Source: a virus
Reading direction: 5' to 3' (one strand)
IMG/VR virus record: IMGVR_UViG_3300045988_035205
Location: 1 to 40,180 of that record
Length of the DNA: 40,180 nt
Both the position numbers and the translations under genes were made by a program. Position 1 is the first letter of the stretch. Every line of letters starts with the position of its first letter. A model generated the notes under the pieces. It saw only the letters and a program-made list of their open reading frames with translations, did no database searches and was not told the DNA's origin. Positions 5,140 through 40,180 of this stretch are shown in pieces.

Positions 5140-5578
5140 AAGACTTCCCACCAGCCGACAGTCCAACAAAACAAACCAAATCTGGGATATTTTGCGCGGA
5201 CATCCACGTTCACTCATGTCGGCTGGCGGGAACCATAACTGAATATCGATTATTATCCACGCGCCGACCACATCCTGCTTCACATACACTGTCGGCGCAC
5301 TGGTTGGGCGACGGTTCGCCCGCCCAAGGATTCCACTCTTCTCTCTCTATCAAGAAACGCGGGCACTCCGGTGCCAGCAAACCCTTTCAAGTCCGCCTGA
5401 CGGCTTTCAGTCGCCGTCGGCCACGCCACCGGCCGTGAACACGTTCAGGTCTGTGTTCCAACGGTCAAAGGGGCGTTCGGAATCCACGGACGGCATCGGT
5501 CCGACTCCGATGCCAGCCACTCAGCCCCATCCACTCGTCATGGTGGGGCACACAACGCCAACGAGCAAAGGACAACCA

Positions 5579-6301
5579 ATGAAAATCACCACACCACACG
5601 GCACTCTCGAAGGCGACAACATCGAATCCATCCTCAAAGAGCATGGATTCCACTGCCTGCATGGTGCCGACCTGTGCGATGCCGACCTGCATGGTGCCGA
5701 CCTGCGCGGTGCCTACCTGCGCCACGCCGACCTGCGTGGTGCCGACCTGCGCCACGCCAGCCTGCATGGTGCCTACCTGATGCACGCCGACCTGCGTGGT
5801 GCCGACCTGTGCGATGCCGACCTGTGCGATGCCGACCTGTATCGTGCCGACCTGCGCGGTGCCTACCTGCGCCACGCCGACCTGCGTGGTGCCGACCTGT
5901 ATGGTGCCGACCTGCACCGTGTCTACGATGTAAAACTCAGCATCGCCAAAATCAGCATCCTTCCGGACGAAGGCGACATCATCGGCTGGAAAAAAGCATA
6001 CGTAGACGACACAATGCCACCGAGACCAGTCATCGTAAAGCTGCTTATCCCAGCAGACGCGCAACGCTCCAACGCCACTGGCCGCAAATGCCGCGCCAGC
6101 ACAGTGCGAGTGCTCGACCTGCAAGACAAGCAAGGCAACAGCCTTCCACCGGACACCACGGCATACAGCGGATACGACACAGACTTCACGTACAAAAAAG
6201 GCGAAACCGTGCACGTCGAAGACTTCGACACCAACCGGTGGAACGAATGCGCTCCAGGCATCCACTTCTTCATCACCCGCATCGAAGCAGCCGAATACTA
6301 G
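5579..6301 (+). CDS. Pentapeptide-repeat protein fused to a conserved C-terminal phage domain. The alternative GTG start at 5435 is less likely.
   Basis: About 17 consecutive A(D/N)LXX-type pentads (HGADL CDADL HGADL RGAYL ...) span 5660-5914. The C-terminal part ends in APGIHFFITRIEAAEY. AAAGGA RBS precedes the ATG at 5579. Confidence 0.8.
   Translation: MKITTPHGTLEGDNIESILKEHGFHCLHGADLCDADLHGADLRGAYLRHADLRGADLRHASLHGAYLMHADLRGADLCDADLCDADLYRADLRGAYLRHADLRGADLYGADLHRVYDVKLSIAKISILPDEGDIIGWKKAYVDDTMPPRPVIVKLLIPADAQRSNATGRKCRASTVRVLDLQDKQGNSLPPDTTAYSGYDTDFTYKKGETVHVEDFDTNRWNECAPGIHFFITRIEAAEY
5694..5899. repeat. Perfect 56-bp direct repeat (5694-5749 and 5844-5899) inside the pentapeptide-repeat array
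   Basis: The two copies are 150 bp apart, equal to 10 pentads and in frame. Confidence 0.8.
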
Positions 6302-13543: not shown

Positions 13544-14295
13544 CCAACTGCCAGCACTGCCGGAAGCCAATGAAGCCGGTGGCCGCGAATCTGCTCTGCG
13601 CCAGCTGCCGAGAAAACTACTGGCAGCTGATCCGCCAGCTCGGACACGTCCAACTGCCCGCCCTGCGGAGCATCATGCTCCGACAGGCCCGCATCGGCAC
13701 CCCAGCACACACGCCAAGCCGAGGCAACGCACCAATACCCATCGACACCCACGCTCAAGACCTCATCGCAGACAGCGAAGCATGGTTGGCGGAACAGGCG
13801 GGCAAAATACGCGCCGCATACGCTGGATACGACTGGCGGAAAGCGTGGTTCGCCATAATCAGCAACCGGCGCACCATCCTCGACATGAGCACTGCAGCAG
13901 ACGATTACGCAGCCCTGGAACACATCAGCCGACGCAACGAGACGGCCTTGACACCAGAAGAGGCAATGGTCATCATCGGCACATGCCCACAATGCGGCCA
14001 CCAAGCCACCAGCACGCCACAGGCCGACGAATGGACATGCCCGCACTGCAAATGGCAAGGCGGAGTCCAAGCAATAAAAGCCGAACGCGACAACAAACTC
14101 TGGCAACTCGAATACACCGGAAAACCAGTCGAAGTCGCACGCTACCTCGCCAAAATGGACATCCACTGCACAAGCGACCAGATCCGCCAATGGCTCACCA
14201 GAGGCAAACTGTCGCACGCCACGCCGACAAAACACAAAGGAGAGTACGTGTTCAACCTCGGAGAACTCACAGCCATGCTTGACTGTCACAATTAA
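13540..14295 (+). CDS. Zinc-ribbon plus C-terminal HTH protein (candidate late-gene regulator)
   Basis: TTG start 7 nt after AAGGAG. It has CxxC...CxxC at the N-terminus, CPQC...CPHC in the centre, and a C-terminal ARYLAKMDIHCTSDQIRQWLTRGKL HTH-like segment. It is the last gene before the late promoter island. Confidence 0.55.
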   Translation: MTNCQHCRKPMKPVAANLLCASCRENYWQLIRQLGHVQLPALRSIMLRQARIGTPAHTPSRGNAPIPIDTHAQDLIADSEAWLAEQAGKIRAAYAGYDWRKAWFAIISNRRTILDMSTAADDYAALEHISRRNETALTPEEAMVIIGTCPQCGHQATSTPQADEWTCPHCKWQGGVQAIKAERDNKLWQLEYTGKPVEVARYLAKMDIHCTSDQIRQWLTRGKLSHATPTKHKGEYVFNLGELTAMLDCHN

Positions 14296-14297
14296 AA

Positions 14298-14306
14298 TGC
14301 TATACT
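14298..14306 (+). promoter_or_regulatory. Extended -10 promoter element (TGcTATACT)
   Basis: It lies in an AT-rich island directly after the 13540-14295 stop, upstream of the tRNA-like gene and the packaging genes. Confidence 0.4.
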
Positions 14307-14325: not shown

Positions 14326-14356
14326 AATGGCTCAGCATAATGATAGCTGAGCCATT
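14326..14356 (+). other. Perfect 11-bp stem hairpin
   Basis: AATGGCTCAGC (14326-14336), a 9-nt loop and GCTGAGCCATT (14346-14356). There is no clear T-tract, so it could be a processing or regulatory structure or a weak terminator. Confidence 0.45.
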
Positions 14357-14365
14357 ATTCATATC

Positions 14366-14527
14366 GCTTCGGTAGCTCAGTGGCAGAGCACAAGGGATAG
14401 CACAGATACCTAGGACGGATACCTTACCGGCCATGGCTTCCTACTTCTTTAAATCGAATGCCCGTGTGATGATAAAAAGACAGTGCACCCCACACAGGCG
14501 CTGGTTCGACTCCAGCCCGAAGCACCA
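14366..14527 (+). ncRNA. Interrupted tRNA-like gene: canonical acceptor, D-arm, T-arm and encoded CCA, but ~110 nt in place of the ~23-nt anticodon and variable region
   Basis: GCTTCGG-TA-GCTC-AGTGGCA-GAGC lies at 14366-14389. GCTGG-TTCGACT-CCAGC-CCGAAGC-A-CCA lies at 14500-14527. The acceptor strands are perfectly complementary. No canonical anticodon stem-loop was found by hand. Confidence 0.6.
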
Positions 14528-14542
14528 CAAGGCGGTGACCAC

Positions 14543-14851
14543 ATGCCAGGAAGAACGCGCAAGACAAGCCGCCAATTCGAAAAAGACAAGGCCGCATTCT
14601 TCACACAATGCAAGGCACAGCATGCAGTCTGCTGGTTGTGCGGCATGCCAATCGACTATGCGGCACCGAAGAACACCACCGATGACAGCTTCAACCTCGA
14701 CCACATGTTCCCCGTCAGCAAGCATCCCGAACTCCAATTCGACCCAGCAGGCTTCAAGCCGAGCCACACCAGCTGCAACCGCTTGAGAGGCAACCAAGAT
14801 CCGCCAGCGCCAATCGGAACACTCTCAAGACAATGGATAACAACAGCATGA
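14543..14851 (+). CDS. HNH endonuclease (terminase-associated type)
   Basis: CWLCG...NLDHMFPVSKH...SHTSCN is an HNH/zinc-finger motif. It lies directly upstream of the terminase genes. The ATG at 14543 follows AAGGCGG. Confidence 0.8.
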   Translation: MPGRTRKTSRQFEKDKAAFFTQCKAQHAVCWLCGMPIDYAAPKNTTDDSFNLDHMFPVSKHPELQFDPAGFKPSHTSCNRLRGNQDPPAPIGTLSRQWITTA

Positions 14852-27803: not shown

Positions 27804-30800
27804 ATGGCAAAGACTTTGCACGCGCGTCTCGTGGCCTATCGTCCATTCGGTGACCGACTCGGTGTGCTGGCCGAGCCGGTGAGCTTCAGCGCGTCCATGC
27901 TCCACAATGATGATGGCGCAATCAGCATCGAATACTCGCTGCTGTCCGGTGACGCTCAGGCTTTCGACCGCGAGCTTACGGACGGCCTCGAAGTGGCAGT
28001 GGAAGTCTCGGACGGTAGTGGCTTCAGGGAGCCGGATAATGCGCGATTCGTCATCACGGGACGCTCCGGTAAGACGGATGACCGCACCAAGACCGTCACC
28101 TACAGTGGCCAGTCGATTGGCTGGCTGCTGTCAAAGGCGGAAAACAATGATTCCTCGCACCTCATCGCCGATGGCGATAACAAGGGTAAAAGGCCATTTT
28201 ATTCGTCCAATCCGGGCACGATTATCAAGACCCTGCTTGACGAAAACCGTCAGCGTGGTGGCGTGGCCACCGGACTGTCGCTCGGCTTCGATACCGCGAG
28301 GGACGCGGGCGGCGCGGCATGGGCGAGGAAGTACACGCTTTACTATTCCTTGGGCACGGATCTGCAGACCATTCTCAGCTCGCTGGTCAATGGTGGCGGC
28401 TGCGACTGGCGCACAAGCGGCAGGGTACTCAAGCTTTGGAATGCGGACAGCACCGCCTTGAGCCGTGACCTGAGCGAGAGCATTGTGCTGCAATTGGCGC
28501 GTGACATCAGCGAAGCCCCATTCGAGGAGTCCATCGCCGACCTGGCATCAACCATCCTTGTCGAAGGTGACAATAATCTGCTCTTCCGCATGGATAATCC
28601 AGCTGCTCCGACGCCTTGGGGCAAGTGGGAATCCTATAGCTCGCAGGGTGGCGTGTCCGATAAGGATACCGCGCAGGCATTCATGCAGTCCACGCTTGAT
28701 GATGCGGCTAGGGTACGCGGCCAGTACACGCGCGATCTGGTGACTTCCGGCGTGGATAATCTACCGCTCATCGACTTCCACGCCGGCGACTGGATCACCG
28801 CGCCAACAGTCACTCACGGCGAGAAGGTGCGCGTCCAGGAAATCGATTTGAGCATGCGCCAGAACGAGGGCCTATCCTGCTCAATCGCTCTGAACGACAT
28901 CAAGTACGACGCTTCCGTGCGTCAGGCGAAGAAGATCAAGGGCATCACCGGTGGTGCCGCGTTGGCCGGTAGTGAGGGCGGCACGACCGCCTCGTCCGAT
29001 CGTGACCATCGCGTGCCGAAGGCTCCGCTTGGTCTTGTGGCGCAGACTGATGCCTATATCGGCAGCGACGGTTTCGCGCATGGTCTGGCCACCGCCATGT
29101 GGAGTGCGGTCATGCAGGCCACGAACAACACCGCCATCGAGATCTCGAACTATGCCGTCGAGTGGCGCAGGCACGTGGATGGCGCGCCCTGGCATTCCGC
29201 TGGCACGACGGATAAGACGCAGCTTGGCTTCGGCGGTTTGGATTGCGGCACGCAAATCGAGGTGCGCGTCAGGGCTGTGCCGACGTATTCGGACAAGCTT
29301 GGTGAATGGTCGAGCGTTTTCGTGGCCACCGTCGAATCGGACGTGACGCCTTGCTCTGTGCCATCCAAGCCGGTATTGTCGTCCGAGCTTGGCGTGGTGA
29401 CCGTCCACTGGGACGGCAGGACCTCCACCGGCGCGTCGATGGAATCGGACTTCGACCATGTCGAGGTCGGCGAGGGCGCTAACGCGGCCGGCATGACCGT
29501 CATCAGCGCCACGCAGGCAGGTCAGGGCGATTATCTCGTGACCGGTCTGACAGCCGGCTCCCAGCACTCCTACGCCTTGCGCTCCGTCGATCATGCGGGC
29601 AATCGTTCCGGCTGGTCGGCAGTCGCTTCGGTGACGGTCGCGTCGGCGGTGTCGCCGGAAGAGGTCAAGCAGATCCAGAAGGATTTGGCTGACAACAAGA
29701 CGGCGTTGATGGATAATACGGCGAAGCTCGATCAGGCGAGGAAGGATATCGCCGCGAATCAGGCCGCTCAGGCGGATACGGCGAATGCTCTCGAATCCGC
29801 GAAGTCGGACATCAAGGCGAACCAGTCGGCCATCAACTCTGCCAACGCAACGTTGAGTGATAACACCGCGAAGCTGACGCAGGCGCAGAAGGACATTCAG
29901 GCGAATAAGACTGGTCTTGATGCGGCGAATCAGACGCTCTCGCAGGCCAAGGCCGATCTGTCGCAGGCGCGGAGGGACATCGCGCAGACCAAAAGCGACC
30001 TGGCCACGGCGAACGGGGAGATCAGCAAGGCGAAGGAGTCGGCGGCGCAGGCGTATGCCGAAGCCCATAGCAAGAACCATACGTTTCGCGGTCCCGACGA
30101 GCCGAAGGGCAATCTCATCGTCGGTGACCTGTGGCTCAAGACGCAGAAGTATTGGACGAGGTGGAAGGGCGAGAAGAACGCAAGCCCATCACTGCTCGCG
30201 GACTTTTACACGTACTGGACCGGCGCGCCGAACAATTCTCCTTCCGTGCTCGTGCCATTGGCCGACCGCGTGATCGACACGCTTGTCTGGGATGGCTCCG
30301 CTTGGAACCACATGGGCTATGCCGATGTCGAGAAGAACGCAGACGAAATTTCCAAGGCTAAGTCGGATATCGCGGACAATGCCGCGAAGACCACCGACGC
30401 CAAGAAGGCTGCCGAGAACGCCGCTGCCGCAGCGAAAAACGCGCAGGGCACGGCTGACACGGCAAATGGTGCGGCGAAGACCGCGCAGGACACCGCCAAT
30501 GCGGCCAACGCCGCCGCGAAGAGCGCGACCGCGACCGCCGGTCAGGCCAAGGATGCCGCCAATGCGGCGCAGACCGCCGCCGAGAGCGCGAAGAAGACCG
30601 CTGGCAATGCGGAGACTTTGGCGAACACCGCCAACGCTTCGGCCAATGCGGCGAAGTCCGACGCGGCTTCGGCCAAGACGGACGCGTCGAATGCGAAGGC
30701 CACCGCCTCGAATGCGTCGAGTGTGGCCACGCAGGCCAAGGCCACCGCAGACAGCGCGGCACAATCCGCCACCGACGCGGCCACCGCCGCGCAGAAAGCG

Positions 30801-33053
30801 AATACGGCTGCTGCCGCCGCCGCTGGCGTGGCGAACGGCAAGGCCGACGTGCTTATCCAGGGCACGGCACCGGCCACGTCGATGCGCAAGGCTTCGACCT
30901 TGTGGATTGACACCACGAACGGTGCGAACACGCCGAAGCGCTGGAATGGCAGTGCTTGGGTGGCTGTGACCGACAAGGCCGCTACCGACGCCGCGAATGC
31001 GGCTGTCAAGGCGAATGATGCGGCCAAGACCGCTCAAGCCACCGCCGACAAGGCTTCGACCGCTGCCGCCAACGCGGCTTCTCAGGCTAATCAGGCTCAG
31101 GCCGCAGCCAAGAAGGCGCAGACAACCGCCGACGGCAAGAACCTCATCTACCGTGGCCCCGACGAACCGAATCATGACGGTCTGAAGCCGGGCGACATGT
31201 GGTGGCGCACGCAAAAGTATTGGACGAGGTGGAAAGGCGAGAAGAACAATTCGCCGTCCATGCTGGCCGACTTCTACACCTACTGGCAGGGAACGCCGAA
31301 CGCTTCACCAAGCGTCTTGGTGCCGCTCGCTGATCGCGTGGTGGAAGTCCTGACATGGGACGGTACGAGATTCGAGCCATTCGACCTCGTGGCGAACAAC
31401 ATCCTCGCTGCTGGAACCGTGGCCGCGAAGCATCTCGCTGCCGACTCCGTGACCGCTGAGAAGGTCAAGGCCAATGCCATCACGGTGGACAAGCTGGCTG
31501 CGAATTCGGTCACGACTGAAAAGCTGGTGGCCGACGCGGTGACCGCCACGAAACTCGCCGCCAACTCGGTGCAGGCGCGGAACATCGTCGCACTGGCCAT
31601 CACGTCCGACAAGATCGCGGCCAATTCGGTGACTACGGGCAAGCTGAAGGTCACTGAGGATATGACGGTGGCCTTGCTCAACGTCCACAAGATTCAGGCG
31701 GGCGACATTGCGGCTAATGCCATCACGACCGACAAGCTCGCCGCTGGCGCGGTCAATGCGGATAAATTGGCTGCTAATTCGGTGACTGCTGGCAAGGTGC
31801 AGACCAATGCCATCGGCACCGACAAGCTCGCCGCGAATGCCGTCACGACCGCGAAGCTGAAGGTCACTGAGGATATGACCGTGGCGCTGCTGAATGTGCA
31901 TAAGATTCAGGCGGGCGACATCGCCGCCAATGCTGTCACGACCGATAAGCTGGCCGCCAACGCGGTGAATGCGGATAAGCTGGCCGCTAATTCGGTCAAT
32001 GCGTCCAAGATTGTCACTGGTGCCATCACCGCCGACAAGCTCGCGGCAAACAGTGTGACGGCTGTCAAGATCGCGGCTGGCACCATCACGTCCGACAAGG
32101 TGGCGGCGGGCCAATTCAAAGGCTATGTCTTCACCGGCGCGATATTCCAGAGCTCCGAGGCCGAGAACACCGGCATGAAGCTCAACGGCACCGCATTGCA
32201 AATGTGGGACAGCAACCACAATCGCACCGTCTATCTTGACGGCGAAGGCAAGTCGAATCTGCTGACTGGCACGTTCCAAACCCGCACGAGCGGGCACAGG
32301 GTGCGCATCAGCCCGGATTATCAGACCTACATCATCGGCGGATCTGAGACTTTCACCGGTGATGGCATCGAATTCCCCGCTTACAACGGGTCCACCGCCT
32401 ACTTTTCGCATCCGGCCATCGCTTCTGTCATCCAGTCGAATCAGGTCGGCGCGATGGGCGAACTGGACTTGTGGAGCGGACACGTGAGCAAGAACGACCC
32501 TGCCGCGTTCATGTCTCTCAGATCGAAGCCGCGCAAGAAAGGCGGTACCGGCAGCGGCGGCGTCACATCCAGAGTGCATGCCGTGGCGAACACGGATTAC
32601 GACGAGGCGGACGAGAGCAAGAAAAGCAGCGCTTTCCTCACTCTGTCCGGCGATAGCGCGAACGGTTCGGAGTGCTGGCTCGAAGCGCAAGACGCGAACG
32701 GCGAGGTCGGAGTCGGCGCGAACATCGGCACCGGATACGTGTATCTCGGCGGCTATCTTGGCGGCATCACGAACCGTTTTACGTTCCATGCCCAGGCTGC
32801 GTGGAAGGCGTGGTATCCGAATCCCGGCTCGAAGATTGCGACCGGCGCTTCCATGCAAGTCGATTGCACGTTCAGCCCGACGAAATACGGCCACTATTAC
32901 GTCGTCGCGAACGCGGATTCACAATGGGCGGGCATCATCGCGCACCCGATGAACACGGGCGGCCAGAGCGGCTTCACATTGAAGCTGTATAACGCCGACC
33001 AGCCTTGCCCGGTGGATGTTTACGCGGAATTCCTGGCTTATTTGGTCAAGTGA
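27804..33053 (+). CDS. Tail-associated protein / tail fibre (Tal-like N-terminus, FN3-like region, Ala-rich coiled coil, AANSVT-type repeats, C-terminal receptor-binding region)
   Basis: 1749 aa directly after Dit. It has internal duplications (30087-30275 / 31152-31343 and 31641-31745 / 31854-31958). Confidence 0.85.
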   Translation: MAKTLHARLVAYRPFGDRLGVLAEPVSFSASMLHNDDGAISIEYSLLSGDAQAFDRELTDGLEVAVEVSDGSGFREPDNARFVITGRSGKTDDRTKTVTYSGQSIGWLLSKAENNDSSHLIADGDNKGKRPFYSSNPGTIIKTLLDENRQRGGVATGLSLGFDTARDAGGAAWARKYTLYYSLGTDLQTILSSLVNGGGCDWRTSGRVLKLWNADSTALSRDLSESIVLQLARDISEAPFEESIADLASTILVEGDNNLLFRMDNPAAPTPWGKWESYSSQGGVSDKDTAQAFMQSTLDDAARVRGQYTRDLVTSGVDNLPLIDFHAGDWITAPTVTHGEKVRVQEIDLSMRQNEGLSCSIALNDIKYDASVRQAKKIKGITGGAALAGSEGGTTASSDRDHRVPKAPLGLVAQTDAYIGSDGFAHGLATAMWSAVMQATNNTAIEISNYAVEWRRHVDGAPWHSAGTTDKTQLGFGGLDCGTQIEVRVRAVPTYSDKLGEWSSVFVATVESDVTPCSVPSKPVLSSELGVVTVHWDGRTSTGASMESDFDHVEVGEGANAAGMTVISATQAGQGDYLVTGLTAGSQHSYALRSVDHAGNRSGWSAVASVTVASAVSPEEVKQIQKDLADNKTALMDNTAKLDQARKDIAANQAAQADTANALESAKSDIKANQSAINSANATLSDNTAKLTQAQKDIQANKTGLDAANQTLSQAKADLSQARRDIAQTKSDLATANGEISKAKESAAQAYAEAHSKNHTFRGPDEPKGNLIVGDLWLKTQKYWTRWKGEKNASPSLLADFYTYWTGAPNNSPSVLVPLADRVIDTLVWDGSAWNHMGYADVEKNADEISKAKSDIADNAAKTTDAKKAAENAAAAAKNAQGTADTANGAAKTAQDTANAANAAAKSATATAGQAKDAANAAQTAAESAKKTAGNAETLANTANASANAAKSDAASAKTDASNAKATASNASSVATQAKATADSAAQSATDAATAAQKANTAAAAAAGVANGKADVLIQGTAPATSMRKASTLWIDTTNGANTPKRWNGSAWVAVTDKAATDAANAAVKANDAAKTAQATADKASTAAANAASQANQAQAAAKKAQTTADGKNLIYRGPDEPNHDGLKPGDMWWRTQKYWTRWKGEKNNSPSMLADFYTYWQGTPNASPSVLVPLADRVVEVLTWDGTRFEPFDLVANNILAAGTVAAKHLAADSVTAEKVKANAITVDKLAANSVTTEKLVADAVTATKLAANSVQARNIVALAITSDKIAANSVTTGKLKVTEDMTVALLNVHKIQAGDIAANAITTDKLAAGAVNADKLAANSVTAGKVQTNAIGTDKLAANAVTTAKLKVTEDMTVALLNVHKIQAGDIAANAVTTDKLAANAVNADKLAANSVNASKIVTGAITADKLAANSVTAVKIAAGTITSDKVAAGQFKGYVFTGAIFQSSEAENTGMKLNGTALQMWDSNHNRTVYLDGEGKSNLLTGTFQTRTSGHRVRISPDYQTYIIGGSETFTGDGIEFPAYNGSTAYFSHPAIASVIQSNQVGAMGELDLWSGHVSKNDPAAFMSLRSKPRKKGGTGSGGVTSRVHAVANTDYDEADESKKSSAFLTLSGDSANGSECWLEAQDANGEVGVGANIGTGYVYLGGYLGGITNRFTFHAQAAWKAWYPNPGSKIATGASMQVDCTFSPTKYGHYYVVANADSQWAGIIAHPMNTGGQSGFTLKLYNADQPCPVDVYAEFLAYLVK

Positions 33054-38955: not shown

Positions 38956-40125
38956 ATGGCCTACACGATCCGCCAATACCAGACGAAAAGCGGAAAAAGA
39001 TACGAAGTCAGATACCGTAAGCCGGACGGCACGGACACAGGCAAACGCGGCTTCAAACGCAAAATGGACGCCGATGCCTGGGGCGCAGCGAACGTGACCA
39101 CAGCTAAAAGCGTCGGAGCGTACATCGACCCACAAGCCGGAAGACGCTTGGTCGAAGACTTCTGGGAGCCATGGCTGGCCGCAAAAAAGACCAAGGCCAA
39201 ACCAAGCTACATCAAGTCATTGGAGGATGCTTGGCGCGCGCATGTCATGCCTCAATGGGGAGTACGCGAAGTCCAGTCCATCACAATGGACGAGGTGCAG
39301 CGGTGGGTCACCGATCTGGCTGGCAGGCGCAGCGCGTCAGTGACCATCCGTGCTGAAAACCTCCTGCGCAGTCTCATGGAGAGGGCAAAGGCCGATCGGT
39401 GCATCCACGACAATCCATGCGACGGCATCGAGCTGCCGCGCAAGCAGGTGCGGAAGCATGTCTATCTGTCGGCCGATGAATTGTCTCGTGTGGCGATGCA
39501 GTGCGGGTGGCGTGAGCCGATCGTGCTGACCTTGGGCCTGTGCGGCATGAGGTGGGGCGAGCTCGTGGCGCTCCGTGTCGAGGATGTCGATCTGCAACGC
39601 TGTCGACTGCATATATATAGGAGCATCACGCGTCTTTCCAGCAGGATGGTGGAGACCGACCCGAAGACCCATGATGGACGCTCGGTGATGTTCCCCTTGG
39701 TGTTGCGTCCGCTGCTCGCCAAGCAATGCGAGGGGCGCGAGCCGTCCGATTTTCTTTTCACCGCTCCCGGCGAGCCTCTGGACGAACCGATGGGCAACGG
39801 CTGGAATCCGACGCGGCACGATGGGTGGTTCGCGGTGGCGCTTCGCCGCGCGGGCGTGGAGCGTGGCCACATGACGATTCACGATCTGCGGCATACCGCC
39901 GCTTCGCTCATGGTGCAGTCCGGCGCTAATGTCAAGACCGTGCAGCGGCAGCTCGGCCACAAGTCGGCCGCGATGACGTTGGACGTGTACGCGGACCTGT
40001 TCGACGATGATCTGGACGACCTGTCGGAGCGTATGGGCGGTCTGCTGTTTTCGCAGGATGTGGGCAAAATGTGGGCAAAAGCGACGCAAGGCATTGATGG
40101 AACCGTTGAAACGGCAAGTGTCTGA
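38956..40125 (+). CDS. int: Tyrosine-type site-specific integrase
   Basis: N-terminal arm-binding-like domain (YEVRYRKPDG), a SAM-like core-binding domain, and a catalytic region with MRWGEL, HDLRHTAASL and LGHKSAAMTLDVYADL (R, H-x-x-R, Y). The gene ends 14 nt before attR. Confidence 0.9.
   Translation: MAYTIRQYQTKSGKRYEVRYRKPDGTDTGKRGFKRKMDADAWGAANVTTAKSVGAYIDPQAGRRLVEDFWEPWLAAKKTKAKPSYIKSLEDAWRAHVMPQWGVREVQSITMDEVQRWVTDLAGRRSASVTIRAENLLRSLMERAKADRCIHDNPCDGIELPRKQVRKHVYLSADELSRVAMQCGWREPIVLTLGLCGMRWGELVALRVEDVDLQRCRLHIYRSITRLSSRMVETDPKTHDGRSVMFPLVLRPLLAKQCEGREPSDFLFTAPGEPLDEPMGNGWNPTRHDGWFAVALRRAGVERGHMTIHDLRHTAASLMVQSGANVKTVQRQLGHKSAAMTLDVYADLFDDDLDDLSERMGGLLFSQDVGKMWAKATQGIDGTVETASV
40058..40079. 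repeat. Paired ATGTGGGCAAA repeats in the right att arm, inside the int 3' end; candidate arm-type integrase site
   Basis: ATGTGGGCAAA occurs twice in tandem. The 17-nt core is identical to 131-148 and lies 63 nt before the attR core. Confidence 0.55.
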
Positions 40126-40139
40126 AGCTTTTCTCCTGT

Positions 40140-40180
40140 GGGTTCGAGTCCCGCTGGAGGCACTTTTGGAAACCGCCAGA
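40140..40180. repeat. attR core (direct repeat, copy 2); displaced partial tRNA 3' end
   Basis: Identical to 1-41. The sequence upstream (40088-40139) has no complementary acceptor 5' strand (CCTCCA) or D-arm, so this copy is not an intact tRNA. Confidence 0.85.

Follow-up and report, generated by a model that had tools for sequence, protein, structure and literature searches.

The stretch of viral DNA analysed here, 40,180 nucleotides long (IMG/VR record IMGVR_UViG_3300045988_035205, positions 1 to 40,180; referred to below, at its full length, as the window), carries a promoter, a leader hairpin and then, just ahead of the genes for an HNH endonuclease and the terminase, a gene for a chimeric RNA of 162 nt (14366-14527, + strand, as are all features of the window described below) that is built on the frame of a tRNA. 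Comparison with its relatives shows a conserved and structured RNA gene, both non-coding and non-decoding, in which the tRNA frame is combined with a junction-type insert and which is situated in the leader of the late operon. That these genes constitute a family of tRNA-derived non-coding RNAs with an unusual architecture is well supported. No description of such an RNA was found in literature searches, in a review of non-canonical tRNAs or in Rfam 15.

The tRNA frame

As read from the sequence, the 5′ part of the gene (14366-14389) consists of the acceptor strand GCTTCGG (14366-14372), U8 and A9, and a D arm (GCTC AGTGGCA GAGC, 14375-14389) whose loop, AGUGGCA, contains G18 and G19. The 3′ part (14500-14527) is made up of a T arm (GCTGG TTCGACT CCAGC, 14500-14516; loop TTCGACT), the second acceptor strand CCGAAGC (14517-14523), which forms a perfect 7-bp stem with GCTTCGG, the discriminator A and an encoded CCA (ACCA, 14524-14527). 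An earlier note on this DNA had described these acceptor, D and T arms as intact, and this is confirmed both by the sequence and by the tRNA model RF00005, which in a local scan gives 41.1 bits (gathering score 29, E 2e-7). The RF00005 alignment covers positions 1-25 and 43-71, with 105 nt replacing the 17 nt of the anticodon arm, in agreement with the long non-canonical centre reported in the same note. The insert is also AT-richer than its surroundings, as had been stated (49% GC, vs 58.6% for the window). ARAGORN calls no tRNA or tmRNA gene in the whole window, Rfam gives no match in the whole window at its gathering threshold, and no covariance model finds a normal cloverleaf, so that the claim that a canonical cloverleaf is missing was borne out. 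When the proposed Rfam/Infernal-type check for tRNA, tmRNA and introns was made, the tRNA model gave this local match, and no intron, ribozyme or tmRNA appeared. A model of the family itself (R1) scores 163 bits on the window gene, which is present there as a single copy.

The homologues amount to 77 distinct sequences, which fall into two divergent subtypes, A and B; the window gene belongs to subtype A. Their length, 145-162 nt, is outside the canonical tRNA length of about 70-95 nt, and a conserved 7-nt anticodon loop is not found in the 77 aligned sequences. The pairs of the frame (acceptor and D arm) are conserved at 96-100%, the GG of the D loop is kept in nearly all sequences, and CCA is encoded in 63 of the 77, the other 3′ ends being CUU, CUA and CAA. 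The frame is fully canonical in subtype A, where C48, the last base of the variable-region linker, matches G15 in 58 of 59 sequences. Selection on the acceptor, D and T arms implies that the “top half and elbow” of the tRNA L-shape have been kept.

The inserted domain

The aligned sequences show a predicted fold in which the helix at the anticodon-stem position, P1, opens, in place of an anticodon loop, into a conserved domain made of a hairpin P2, a proposed P3 and two purine-rich junction strands. P1 continues from tRNA positions 28-34 and 36-39; its 5′ strand GGGAU-A-GCAC (14394-14403) prolongs the anticodon-stem position and pairs with the 3′ strand GUGC-A-CCCC (14483-14491). It is followed by the junction strand J1/2 (AGAUACCUA, 14404-14412), the RAUACC core of which is conserved in both subtypes, and by P2 (14413-14432), where GGACGG (14413-14418) pairs with CCGGCC (14427-14432) across a variable loop of 6-10 nt. 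Four outer and inner G-C pairs of P2 are invariant or nearly so, and its central non-Watson-Crick pair is AxG in subtype A and CxA in subtype B. In the proposed P3 (14433-14467), AUGG (14433-14436) would pair with the CCGU contained in 14462-14467, enclosing a variable distal hairpin (14437-14461). This base, AUGG:CCRU, is pairable in 75-77 of the 77 sequences, with U.G replaced by U-A between the subtypes; the distal part of P3 differs in sequence and length among relatives. The second junction strand, J3/1 (GAUGAUAAAAAGACA, 14468-14482), contains a conserved GAUGA and an A-rich linker of variable length, and the variable-region linker ACACAGGC (14492-14499), which leads back into the tRNA frame, is the most variable segment of all, in sequence as well as in length. 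P1 and P2 are recovered in the minimum-free-energy (MFE) folds of most variants. A pseudoknot between the P3 loop (UCUUU) and J3/1 (AAAGA) is possible in subtype A; it is absent in subtype B and is not accompanied by covariation.

The pairings put forward for this region in the earlier note did not survive comparison. The stem GTGTG:CACAC is not conserved, most relatives having GTG only, and neither is CAAGG:CCTT, the CCTT of which lies in a variable loop with CCAAA or ACAGA in other sequences. Among the palindromes listed there, four in number, CCATGG is conserved and the other three are not; the in-frame TGA-TGA-TAA, contained in J3/1, is real insofar as it forms part of a conserved RNA motif, RUGAUGA, and does not mark the end of a conserved reading frame. 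Readings of GUGAUGA as a hammerhead, K-turn or box C/D motif were rejected on inspection: junction strands of about 10, 0 and 13 nt do not fit them, the partner motifs are missing (no CUGA, no GA opposite), and Rfam is without a match. The window itself has a weaker variant of P1 and a private duplication of GT. The duplication (14464-14465), common to the window and locus L035, gives CCCGTGTGATG where CCCGTGATG is found elsewhere; it produced the GTGTG just mentioned and shifts a spurious open reading frame (ORF) that starts at 14433.

Covariation and selection on the RNA

An explicit structure model was tested on an alignment (A3) of the 77 distinct subtype A and B sequences. Standard pairs occupy 92.0% of the cells, and sliding the 3′ partners by 1-3 columns lowers this figure to 27-40%. 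Seven pairs (P1, four; T stem, two; P3, one) have changed on both sides. Cells with double changes number 70, vs 15.6 in column shuffles, with none of 500 shuffles as high; since the sequences are closely related, these shuffle figures overstate the support, and the slid controls together with the individual pairs constitute the stronger evidence. Thus, at pair 32:133 of P1, subtype A has G-C and the 18 sequences of subtype B all have A-U; at pair 38:128, also in P1, 59 sequences have A-U and 9 have G-C. Two T-stem pairs show three Watson-Crick types each, 147:160 for instance being found as U-A, C-G and G-C. Wobble pairs are informative about the strand: U.G at 75:109 (56 sequences) and G.U at 31:134 (11 sequences) would be C.A mismatches on the opposite strand, which implies that the selected molecule is the + strand RNA. 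Entropy, in bits per column, is 0.02-0.12 for the stems, 0.59 for the P2 loop, 0.49 for distal P3 and 0.88 for the variable region. This distribution, in which loops and linkers vary and stems are nearly invariant, fits an RNA under structural selection.

A protein-coding reading was rejected, as the frame opened by the conserved AUG is not itself conserved. This frame, which begins within CCAUGG, ends after 3, 6, 8, 15 or 30-34 codons, or runs on; it is open and in frame with the HNH gene in 16 of the 74 distinct variants that have a start codon in CCAUGG (78 examined). In addition, indels in the RNA gene are not multiples of three, and the gap was left uncalled by gene callers in 8 assemblies.

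Relatives and the occupants of the slot

Pattern scans of the viral collection found the RNA in 99 loci. A promoter-anchored scan, in which the RNA itself plays no part, yielded 155 loci, and one that used the upstream protein as its anchor yielded 80, all of one clade and with at least 83% identity. Altogether the element is present in more than 150 viral contigs of Bifidobacterium temperate phages, always with the insert. GenBank MT836208, from human faeces, contains it with flanks 90% identical to the window and an RNA about 80% identical. A scan of genomes found it in a contig of Bifidobacterium ruminantium DSM 6489 (L151), where it belongs to a prophage, and in one contig of a “Collinsella” metagenome-assembled genome (MAG), from which it follows that the host is Bifidobacterium. 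What else the 5′ half matched in genomes were unrelated tRNAs for Asn, Phe and Thr in Candidate Phyla Radiation (CPR) bacteria, archaea and Bacteroidota, so that no source tRNA could be identified from the genome scan with this half. Cultured-phage records hold one unannotated subtype A relative and none of subtype B or of the type C described below.

The position between the leader hairpin and the HNH gene behaves as a slot with several occupants. The census of the 80 protein-anchored loci counts about 51 copies of subtype A, about 15 of subtype B plus one internally deleted copy, 10 of an unrelated RNA (type C), one of a further sequence (type D) and two near-total deletions. Subtype B, which first surfaced among the promoter-anchored loci, has the same architecture as subtype A, with an insert too diverged for a subtype A nhmmer query. 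Type C, about 172 nt long, is likewise structured, though unrelated, and a 10-bp stem closes it; 6 of its 44 predicted pairs show compensatory changes (alignment A4), and its members are L156:3821-3992 (-), L166, L167, L170, L180, L189, L192, L207, L210 and L211. Neither subtype B nor type C matches an Rfam family. A hairpin loop of type C is a palindrome, CCAUGG, that becomes CAUAUG in other variants; four substitutions thus keep the loop palindromic, which hints at loop-loop dimerisation or at a site acting at the DNA level. Type D (L270), seen once, represents a fourth sequence, again unrelated; it is about 170 nt long and lies between the leader hairpin and an HNH gene of a second type. 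An ordinary tRNA occupies the slot in none of 60 relatives examined by ARAGORN and at none of the loci of the census; the earlier note had named an uninterrupted tRNA in related phages as something to look for.

Deletion derivatives of the RNA are found at L185, L195, L191, L205, L271, L200, L201, L289, L290 and L206. Some of these deletions run between short repeats (e.g. CGGTC...CGGTC) and leave about 75-125 nt; the near-complete ones (L200, L201, L289 and L290) join the leader to the ribosome-binding site of HNH. A, B and C are accompanied by the same versions of the hairpin and the same types of HNH, from which it follows that the RNA behaves as an exchangeable cassette. A further 47 loci that came from a scan with the central 16-mer ACCGGCCATGGCTTCC were discarded as chance matches in coding sequence, e.g. 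in integrase-like genes.

A possible parallel was noted outside the family. Next to an array of 13 tRNA genes, an uncultured Actinomycetota MAG (L154:1291-1438, -) has another sequence, about 130-148 nt long, that resembles a tRNA and escapes ARAGORN. By eye, a GCGGAAG near its 5′ end is complementary to a CTTCCGC that follows a canonical T arm, the two being separated by about 100 nt; this may be a separate instance of a tRNA-like gene with a long insert.

Promoter, leader hairpin and late operon

The earlier note had placed the gene after an extended -10 promoter and an 11-bp hairpin and 15 nt ahead of the HNH/terminase late genes, all of which is correct. The promoter scan finds a near-consensus sigma-70-type promoter at 14279-14306 (TTGACT, 16 nt, TGcTATACT), overlapping the stop codon of an upstream gene for a 251-aa Zn-ribbon protein that ends at 14295. 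Its 34-nt core is invariant in the 155 related loci despite diverging flanks. The leader hairpin that follows (14326-14356) has a perfect 11-bp stem (14326-14336/14346-14356), a 9-nt loop and a U-rich tail (14357-14365) that is conserved and reads UUAUUCAUAUC or UUUUUCAUAUCCA in relatives; at least six sequence versions of the hairpin exist among the latter, with pairing kept by compensatory changes. This covarying hairpin is terminator-like; its role as a terminator is putative, since a simple terminator rule does not call the version in the window. A promoter with a hairpin 20 nt downstream resembles the PR′-tR′ layout of lambda. By this analogy, late transcription may be under antitermination control, as the arrangement suggests. 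The product of the adjacent 251-aa gene (phrog_908; weak Zn-ribbon matches and, by eye, a possible helix-turn-helix) is a candidate regulator; it was also considered as a protein partner of the RNA and rejected in this role, its matches to Zn-ribbons being weak and the only ones.

Downstream of the RNA gene, 14529-14851 is taken up by the ribosome-binding site AAGGCGG (14529-14535) and the first late gene, which encodes an HNH endonuclease of the packaging type (14543-14851; phrog_338, E 7e-27). The ribosome-binding site starts 2 nt after the CCA in the window and 1-4 nt past the 3′ end of the RNA in relatives; from the CCA to the HNH ATG (14543) there are 15 nt, and the gene order is then HNH, TerS, TerL and portal. 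In other phages with HNH-dependent cos sites, cos is located between HNH and TerS. On the basis of gene order, the cos region of the present phage is probably the 130-nt gap between HNH and TerS, separate from the RNA gene; if so, the block formed by promoter, RNA and HNH might, speculatively, sit at one end of the virion DNA.

Comparison with known RNAs

By its architecture, the RNA has its closest counterpart in the engineered tRNA scaffold and, among natural RNAs, in tmRNA and YrlA, and it fails the defining tests of both of the latter. Only few natural RNAs reuse the tRNA frame beyond decoding, namely tmRNA, YrlA, viral tRNA-like ends and the mascRNA of MALAT1. With tmRNA (SsrA), which some phages encode, the phage RNA shares a tRNA-like acceptor/T-arm domain from which a long helix at the anticodon-stem position leads to a large internal domain; tmRNA has, however, a G3.U70 pair, pseudoknots, a D arm of reduced size and a reading frame for a tag, and the phage RNA has none of these. 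tRNA genes with group I introns are likewise interrupted at the anticodon position, but they contain a catalytic core and exons that restore an anticodon arm, and the phage RNA contains neither. The stable RNAs “species 1 and 2” of T4 come from its tRNA gene cluster, are co-transcribed and co-processed with tRNAs and are of unknown function; they too are small stable RNAs encoded by a phage, although they are not known to be a tRNA frame with an insert. In MALAT1, the mascRNA is a tRNA-like fold within a longer transcript, which is cut by RNase P and RNase Z. The t-elements of plant mitochondria are described as tRNA-like, non-decoding folds in longer transcripts that are cut by the same two enzymes, whereby the ends of adjacent RNAs are set (PMC1920247). 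The phage RNA, in a transcript leader, would similarly be an embedded non-decoding tRNA-like fold; t-elements and mascRNA are, in contrast, minimal mimics without a large conserved insert, and are eukaryotic or organellar.

YrlA-type Y RNAs, which also occur in phages, are modular, with tRNA-like D, T and acceptor elements joined to a second module, and processing of such a chimera has been shown for the YrlA of Mycobacterium smegmatis (PMC4201824). As in the phage RNA, the second module is at the anticodon-stem position. The topology is the opposite one: YrlA ends in its Ro-binding stem and its acceptor-like stem is closed, whereas the phage RNA ends at the acceptor stem and its anticodon-position helix is closed by the inserted domain. 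YrlA carries the Ro-binding motif GNCGAA(N0-1)G and its gene lies within a few kb of Ro60/TROVE (PMC4201824). This motif is found in 0 of the 77 sequences, and there is no TROVE- or Ro-like match among the 29 window proteins scanned, some small ORFs being outside the scan.

In the engineered tRNA scaffold of Ponchon and Dardel, a cargo is placed on the anticodon stem with the acceptor, D and T arms kept, and chimeras of this kind have been shown to undergo processing and to be stable in bacteria (PMC3753655). The phage RNA has this same architecture, with intact acceptor, D and T arms and a cargo attached via an extended anticodon stem (P1); it is, on the other hand, a natural and evolving RNA within an operon leader, whereas the scaffold is a laboratory design.

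Proposed role and alternative explanations

We favour, with a confidence only a little above even, the explanation that the gene gives rise to a stable, non-decoding RNA on a tRNA frame, with a payload domain in place of the anticodon, that is matured by host tRNA enzymes. Judging from its position, the RNA would be transcribed as the leader of the late operon (HNH, terminase, portal) from the invariant strong promoter, past the terminator-like hairpin. What RNase P, the 3′ maturation enzymes and the CCA enzyme recognise is an acceptor stem of 7 bp stacked on a T stem of 5 bp, with the D/T elbow intact. As the frame resembles a pre-tRNA, a cut by host RNase P at G1 (14366) is to be expected, and by the rules of tRNA biology the 3′ tRNA-maturation enzymes would trim to the encoded CCA. 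Such processing would release an RNA of about 160 nt, and the late mRNA would then start 1-4 nt ahead of its ribosome-binding site. The inserted domain would be the payload and the tRNA frame a scaffold for processing and stability; speculatively, the payload may titrate a host protein, possibly a tRNA-directed defence or RNA-processing enzyme. The suggestion of the earlier note that this is a tRNA-scaffold RNA is hence upheld in its general form, by the conserved frame, the conserved structured insert, the lack of an anticodon and the position in a leader.

From the cassette behaviour of the slot and from the deletion variants we infer an accessory function of the payload; they suggest an exchangeable role, such as the binding or titration of a host factor or a tRNA-directed defence, and not a core role in decoding or packaging. 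A broader proposal, which we put forward tentatively and regard as possible but clearly less probable than the favoured explanation, is that the position is an exchangeable “RNA cassette” slot heading the late operon, usually filled with a natural tRNA scaffold that, by way of host tRNA maturation, yields a stable effector RNA, the junction domain of which would bind or titrate a host factor (e.g. a tRNA-directed defence or an enzyme of RNA processing). If this were true, it would be the first natural example of a tRNA scaffold, with types B, C and D as other payloads or scaffolds. An antisense target within the phage was also looked for, and complementary 10- to 12-mers were no commoner there than in shuffled controls.

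Several observations weigh against the stable-RNA explanation, or against parts of it. The UGG at 14434-14436 has two candidate partners, the CC(A) of J1/2 and the downstream CCRU, both equally invariant, and thermodynamic folds often pair the UGG of CCAUGG with the former. P2 and the base of P3 never covary, so that what backs them is conservation, i.e. their invariance beside variable loops. For the sequence of the window, the comparative model is less favourable than the MFE by 12.7 kcal/mol, and the RNA as a whole is not unusually stable (z -1.2). The homologues are all of one phage clade, which inflates the shuffle statistics given above. In subtype B, the T loop UCCGACU (U55C) and the mismatch A7xA66 (A7xG66 in one sequence) mean that there is no strict need for complete mimicry of a tRNA. 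As deletion variants exist, the RNA may be dispensable, and if the hairpin terminates efficiently, the RNA would be made only after antitermination. Finally, the handling of the RNA by RNase P and the CCA enzyme is deduced from its frame, and no partner protein can be named, the upstream 251-aa gene yielding weak Zn-ribbon matches only.

Among other explanations, a purely cis-acting role, similar to that of t-elements or mascRNA, appears rather unlikely: RNase P and the 3′ enzymes would cut the late transcript, take off the promoter-proximal leader with its hairpin and thereby set the 5′ end of the HNH-terminase mRNA, the released RNA being functionless. This would agree with a position in the late-operon leader and a ribosome-binding site 1-4 nt past the 3′ end of the RNA, the 10-bp end stem of type C could be the entry site of another nuclease, and t-elements provide a documented precedent for tRNA-like structures setting mRNA ends (PMC1920247). 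Yet an acceptor/T minihelix would suffice for punctuation, while conservation of the 105-nt insert equals that of the frame, and the insert displays conserved single-stranded junction motifs and compensatory changes in P1; moreover, L200, L201, L289 and L290 fuse the leader straight to the ribosome-binding site, which shows that cleavage is not obligatory for the layout of the operon. It is improbable that the gene encodes a functional tRNA with a new small intron of about 90-105 nt, the removal of which would give a decoding tRNA, as the earlier note had considered. The subtype A frame is fully canonical, AUAGCAC after GGG in this subtype fits the 7-nt anticodon-loop pattern N-U-NNN-R-N, and in one variant group (e.g. 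L001 and L007) GAGGG/CCCUC could form a perfect 5-bp stem beside a 5-nt variable loop. Nevertheless, no relative has an intron-less allele (slot census; 60 loci by ARAGORN), the window's own flanks leave only a 3-bp stem, GGG/CCC, and subtype B keeps the insert with U, C or a gap at the would-be U33 together with U55C and A7xA66. Known bacterial group I tRNA introns are far longer than this insert, roughly twice as long or more, and local Rfam scans of subtypes A and B at E<=10 contain no group I/II intron or self-cleaving ribozyme. A bulge-helix-bulge, in which a 4-bp helix separates two 3-nt bulges on opposite strands, is also missing: the bulge (AUA or A; 1 nt in subtype B) is on the 5′ strand only, beside GCAC/GUGC, and the strand opposite it opens directly into the junction. 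An RNA ligase or splicing-type endonuclease is absent among the 29 phage proteins scanned, as are Ro60 and any aminoacyl-tRNA-related protein. The invariant AUAGCAC, with its anticodon-loop form, may instead be a relic of an ancestral tRNA.

It is more improbable still that the RNA is tmRNA-like or otherwise aminoacylated and enters the ribosome or an aminoacyl-tRNA-dependent pathway, with the insert as a tmRNA body. The acceptor/T arm with its long helix to an internal domain does resemble tmRNA, and CCA is encoded in most sequences (63/77), but pair 3:70 is U-A in 76 of the 77, which removes the alanine identity pair G3.U70, and the D stem, unlike that of tmRNA, is complete. There is no conserved open frame or resume-stop arrangement, neither ARAGORN nor the Rfam tmRNA models give a match, and the 3′ end is not always CCA. 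Least credible of all, and contradicted by the data, is that the locus is a decayed tRNA pseudogene, one of the options of the earlier note, or that its conservation is due to the DNA or to a protein. It is true that tRNA finders reject the gene, that in the window an ORF starts at the ATG of the conserved CCATGG, and that CCATGG is palindromic. Against this explanation stand the purifying selection and the compensatory changes across the 77 distinct sequences, as well as the persistence of the element across more than 150 contigs; so do the strand-specific G.U pairs, the contrast of conserved stems with variable loops and the lack of a conserved reading frame, and the probable cos region lies elsewhere, in the 130-nt HNH-TerS gap.

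The architecture is the one that RNA engineers devised in order to stabilise foreign RNAs in bacteria, which suggests that phages have reached the same solution. The element is abundant in Bifidobacterium phages of the human gut and is nevertheless missed by standard tRNA finders and by default Rfam searches; the family now gives a ready alignment and covariance model for annotation. Swapping of structured RNAs in one slot is a pattern typical of accessory or counter-defence loci, and the partner of the payload could reveal a new RNA-based way in which phages manipulate important gut commensals.

The phage genome

The window begins and ends with an identical 41-nt repeat (1-41 and 40140-40180), which indicates a circular genome of 40,139 bp assembled with an overlap and not a prophage with host flanks. 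The repeat consists of the 3′ end of a different, host-type tRNA (GGGTTCGAGTCCCGCTGGAGGCA) and a terminator hairpin, right after the integrase gene (38956-40125); it is probably the attP core and is unrelated to the tRNA-framed gene. The genes are those of a temperate siphophage and include a metalloprotease, an anti-repressor, RecE/RecT, SSB, RusA, a replication initiator, the late genes, an endolysin and the integrase.

Repeats are also present within two ORFs. An early-region ORF (5435-6301), which matches only PHROGs of unknown function, has sixteen tandem 15-nt units (a 5-residue protein repeat) at 5626-5971, and a 1749-aa ORF (27804-33053), possibly a tail gene, has large internal direct repeats, one of 213 nt occurring twice in tandem with 77% identity and one of 155 nt occurring twice (31596-32021 and 30123-31345).

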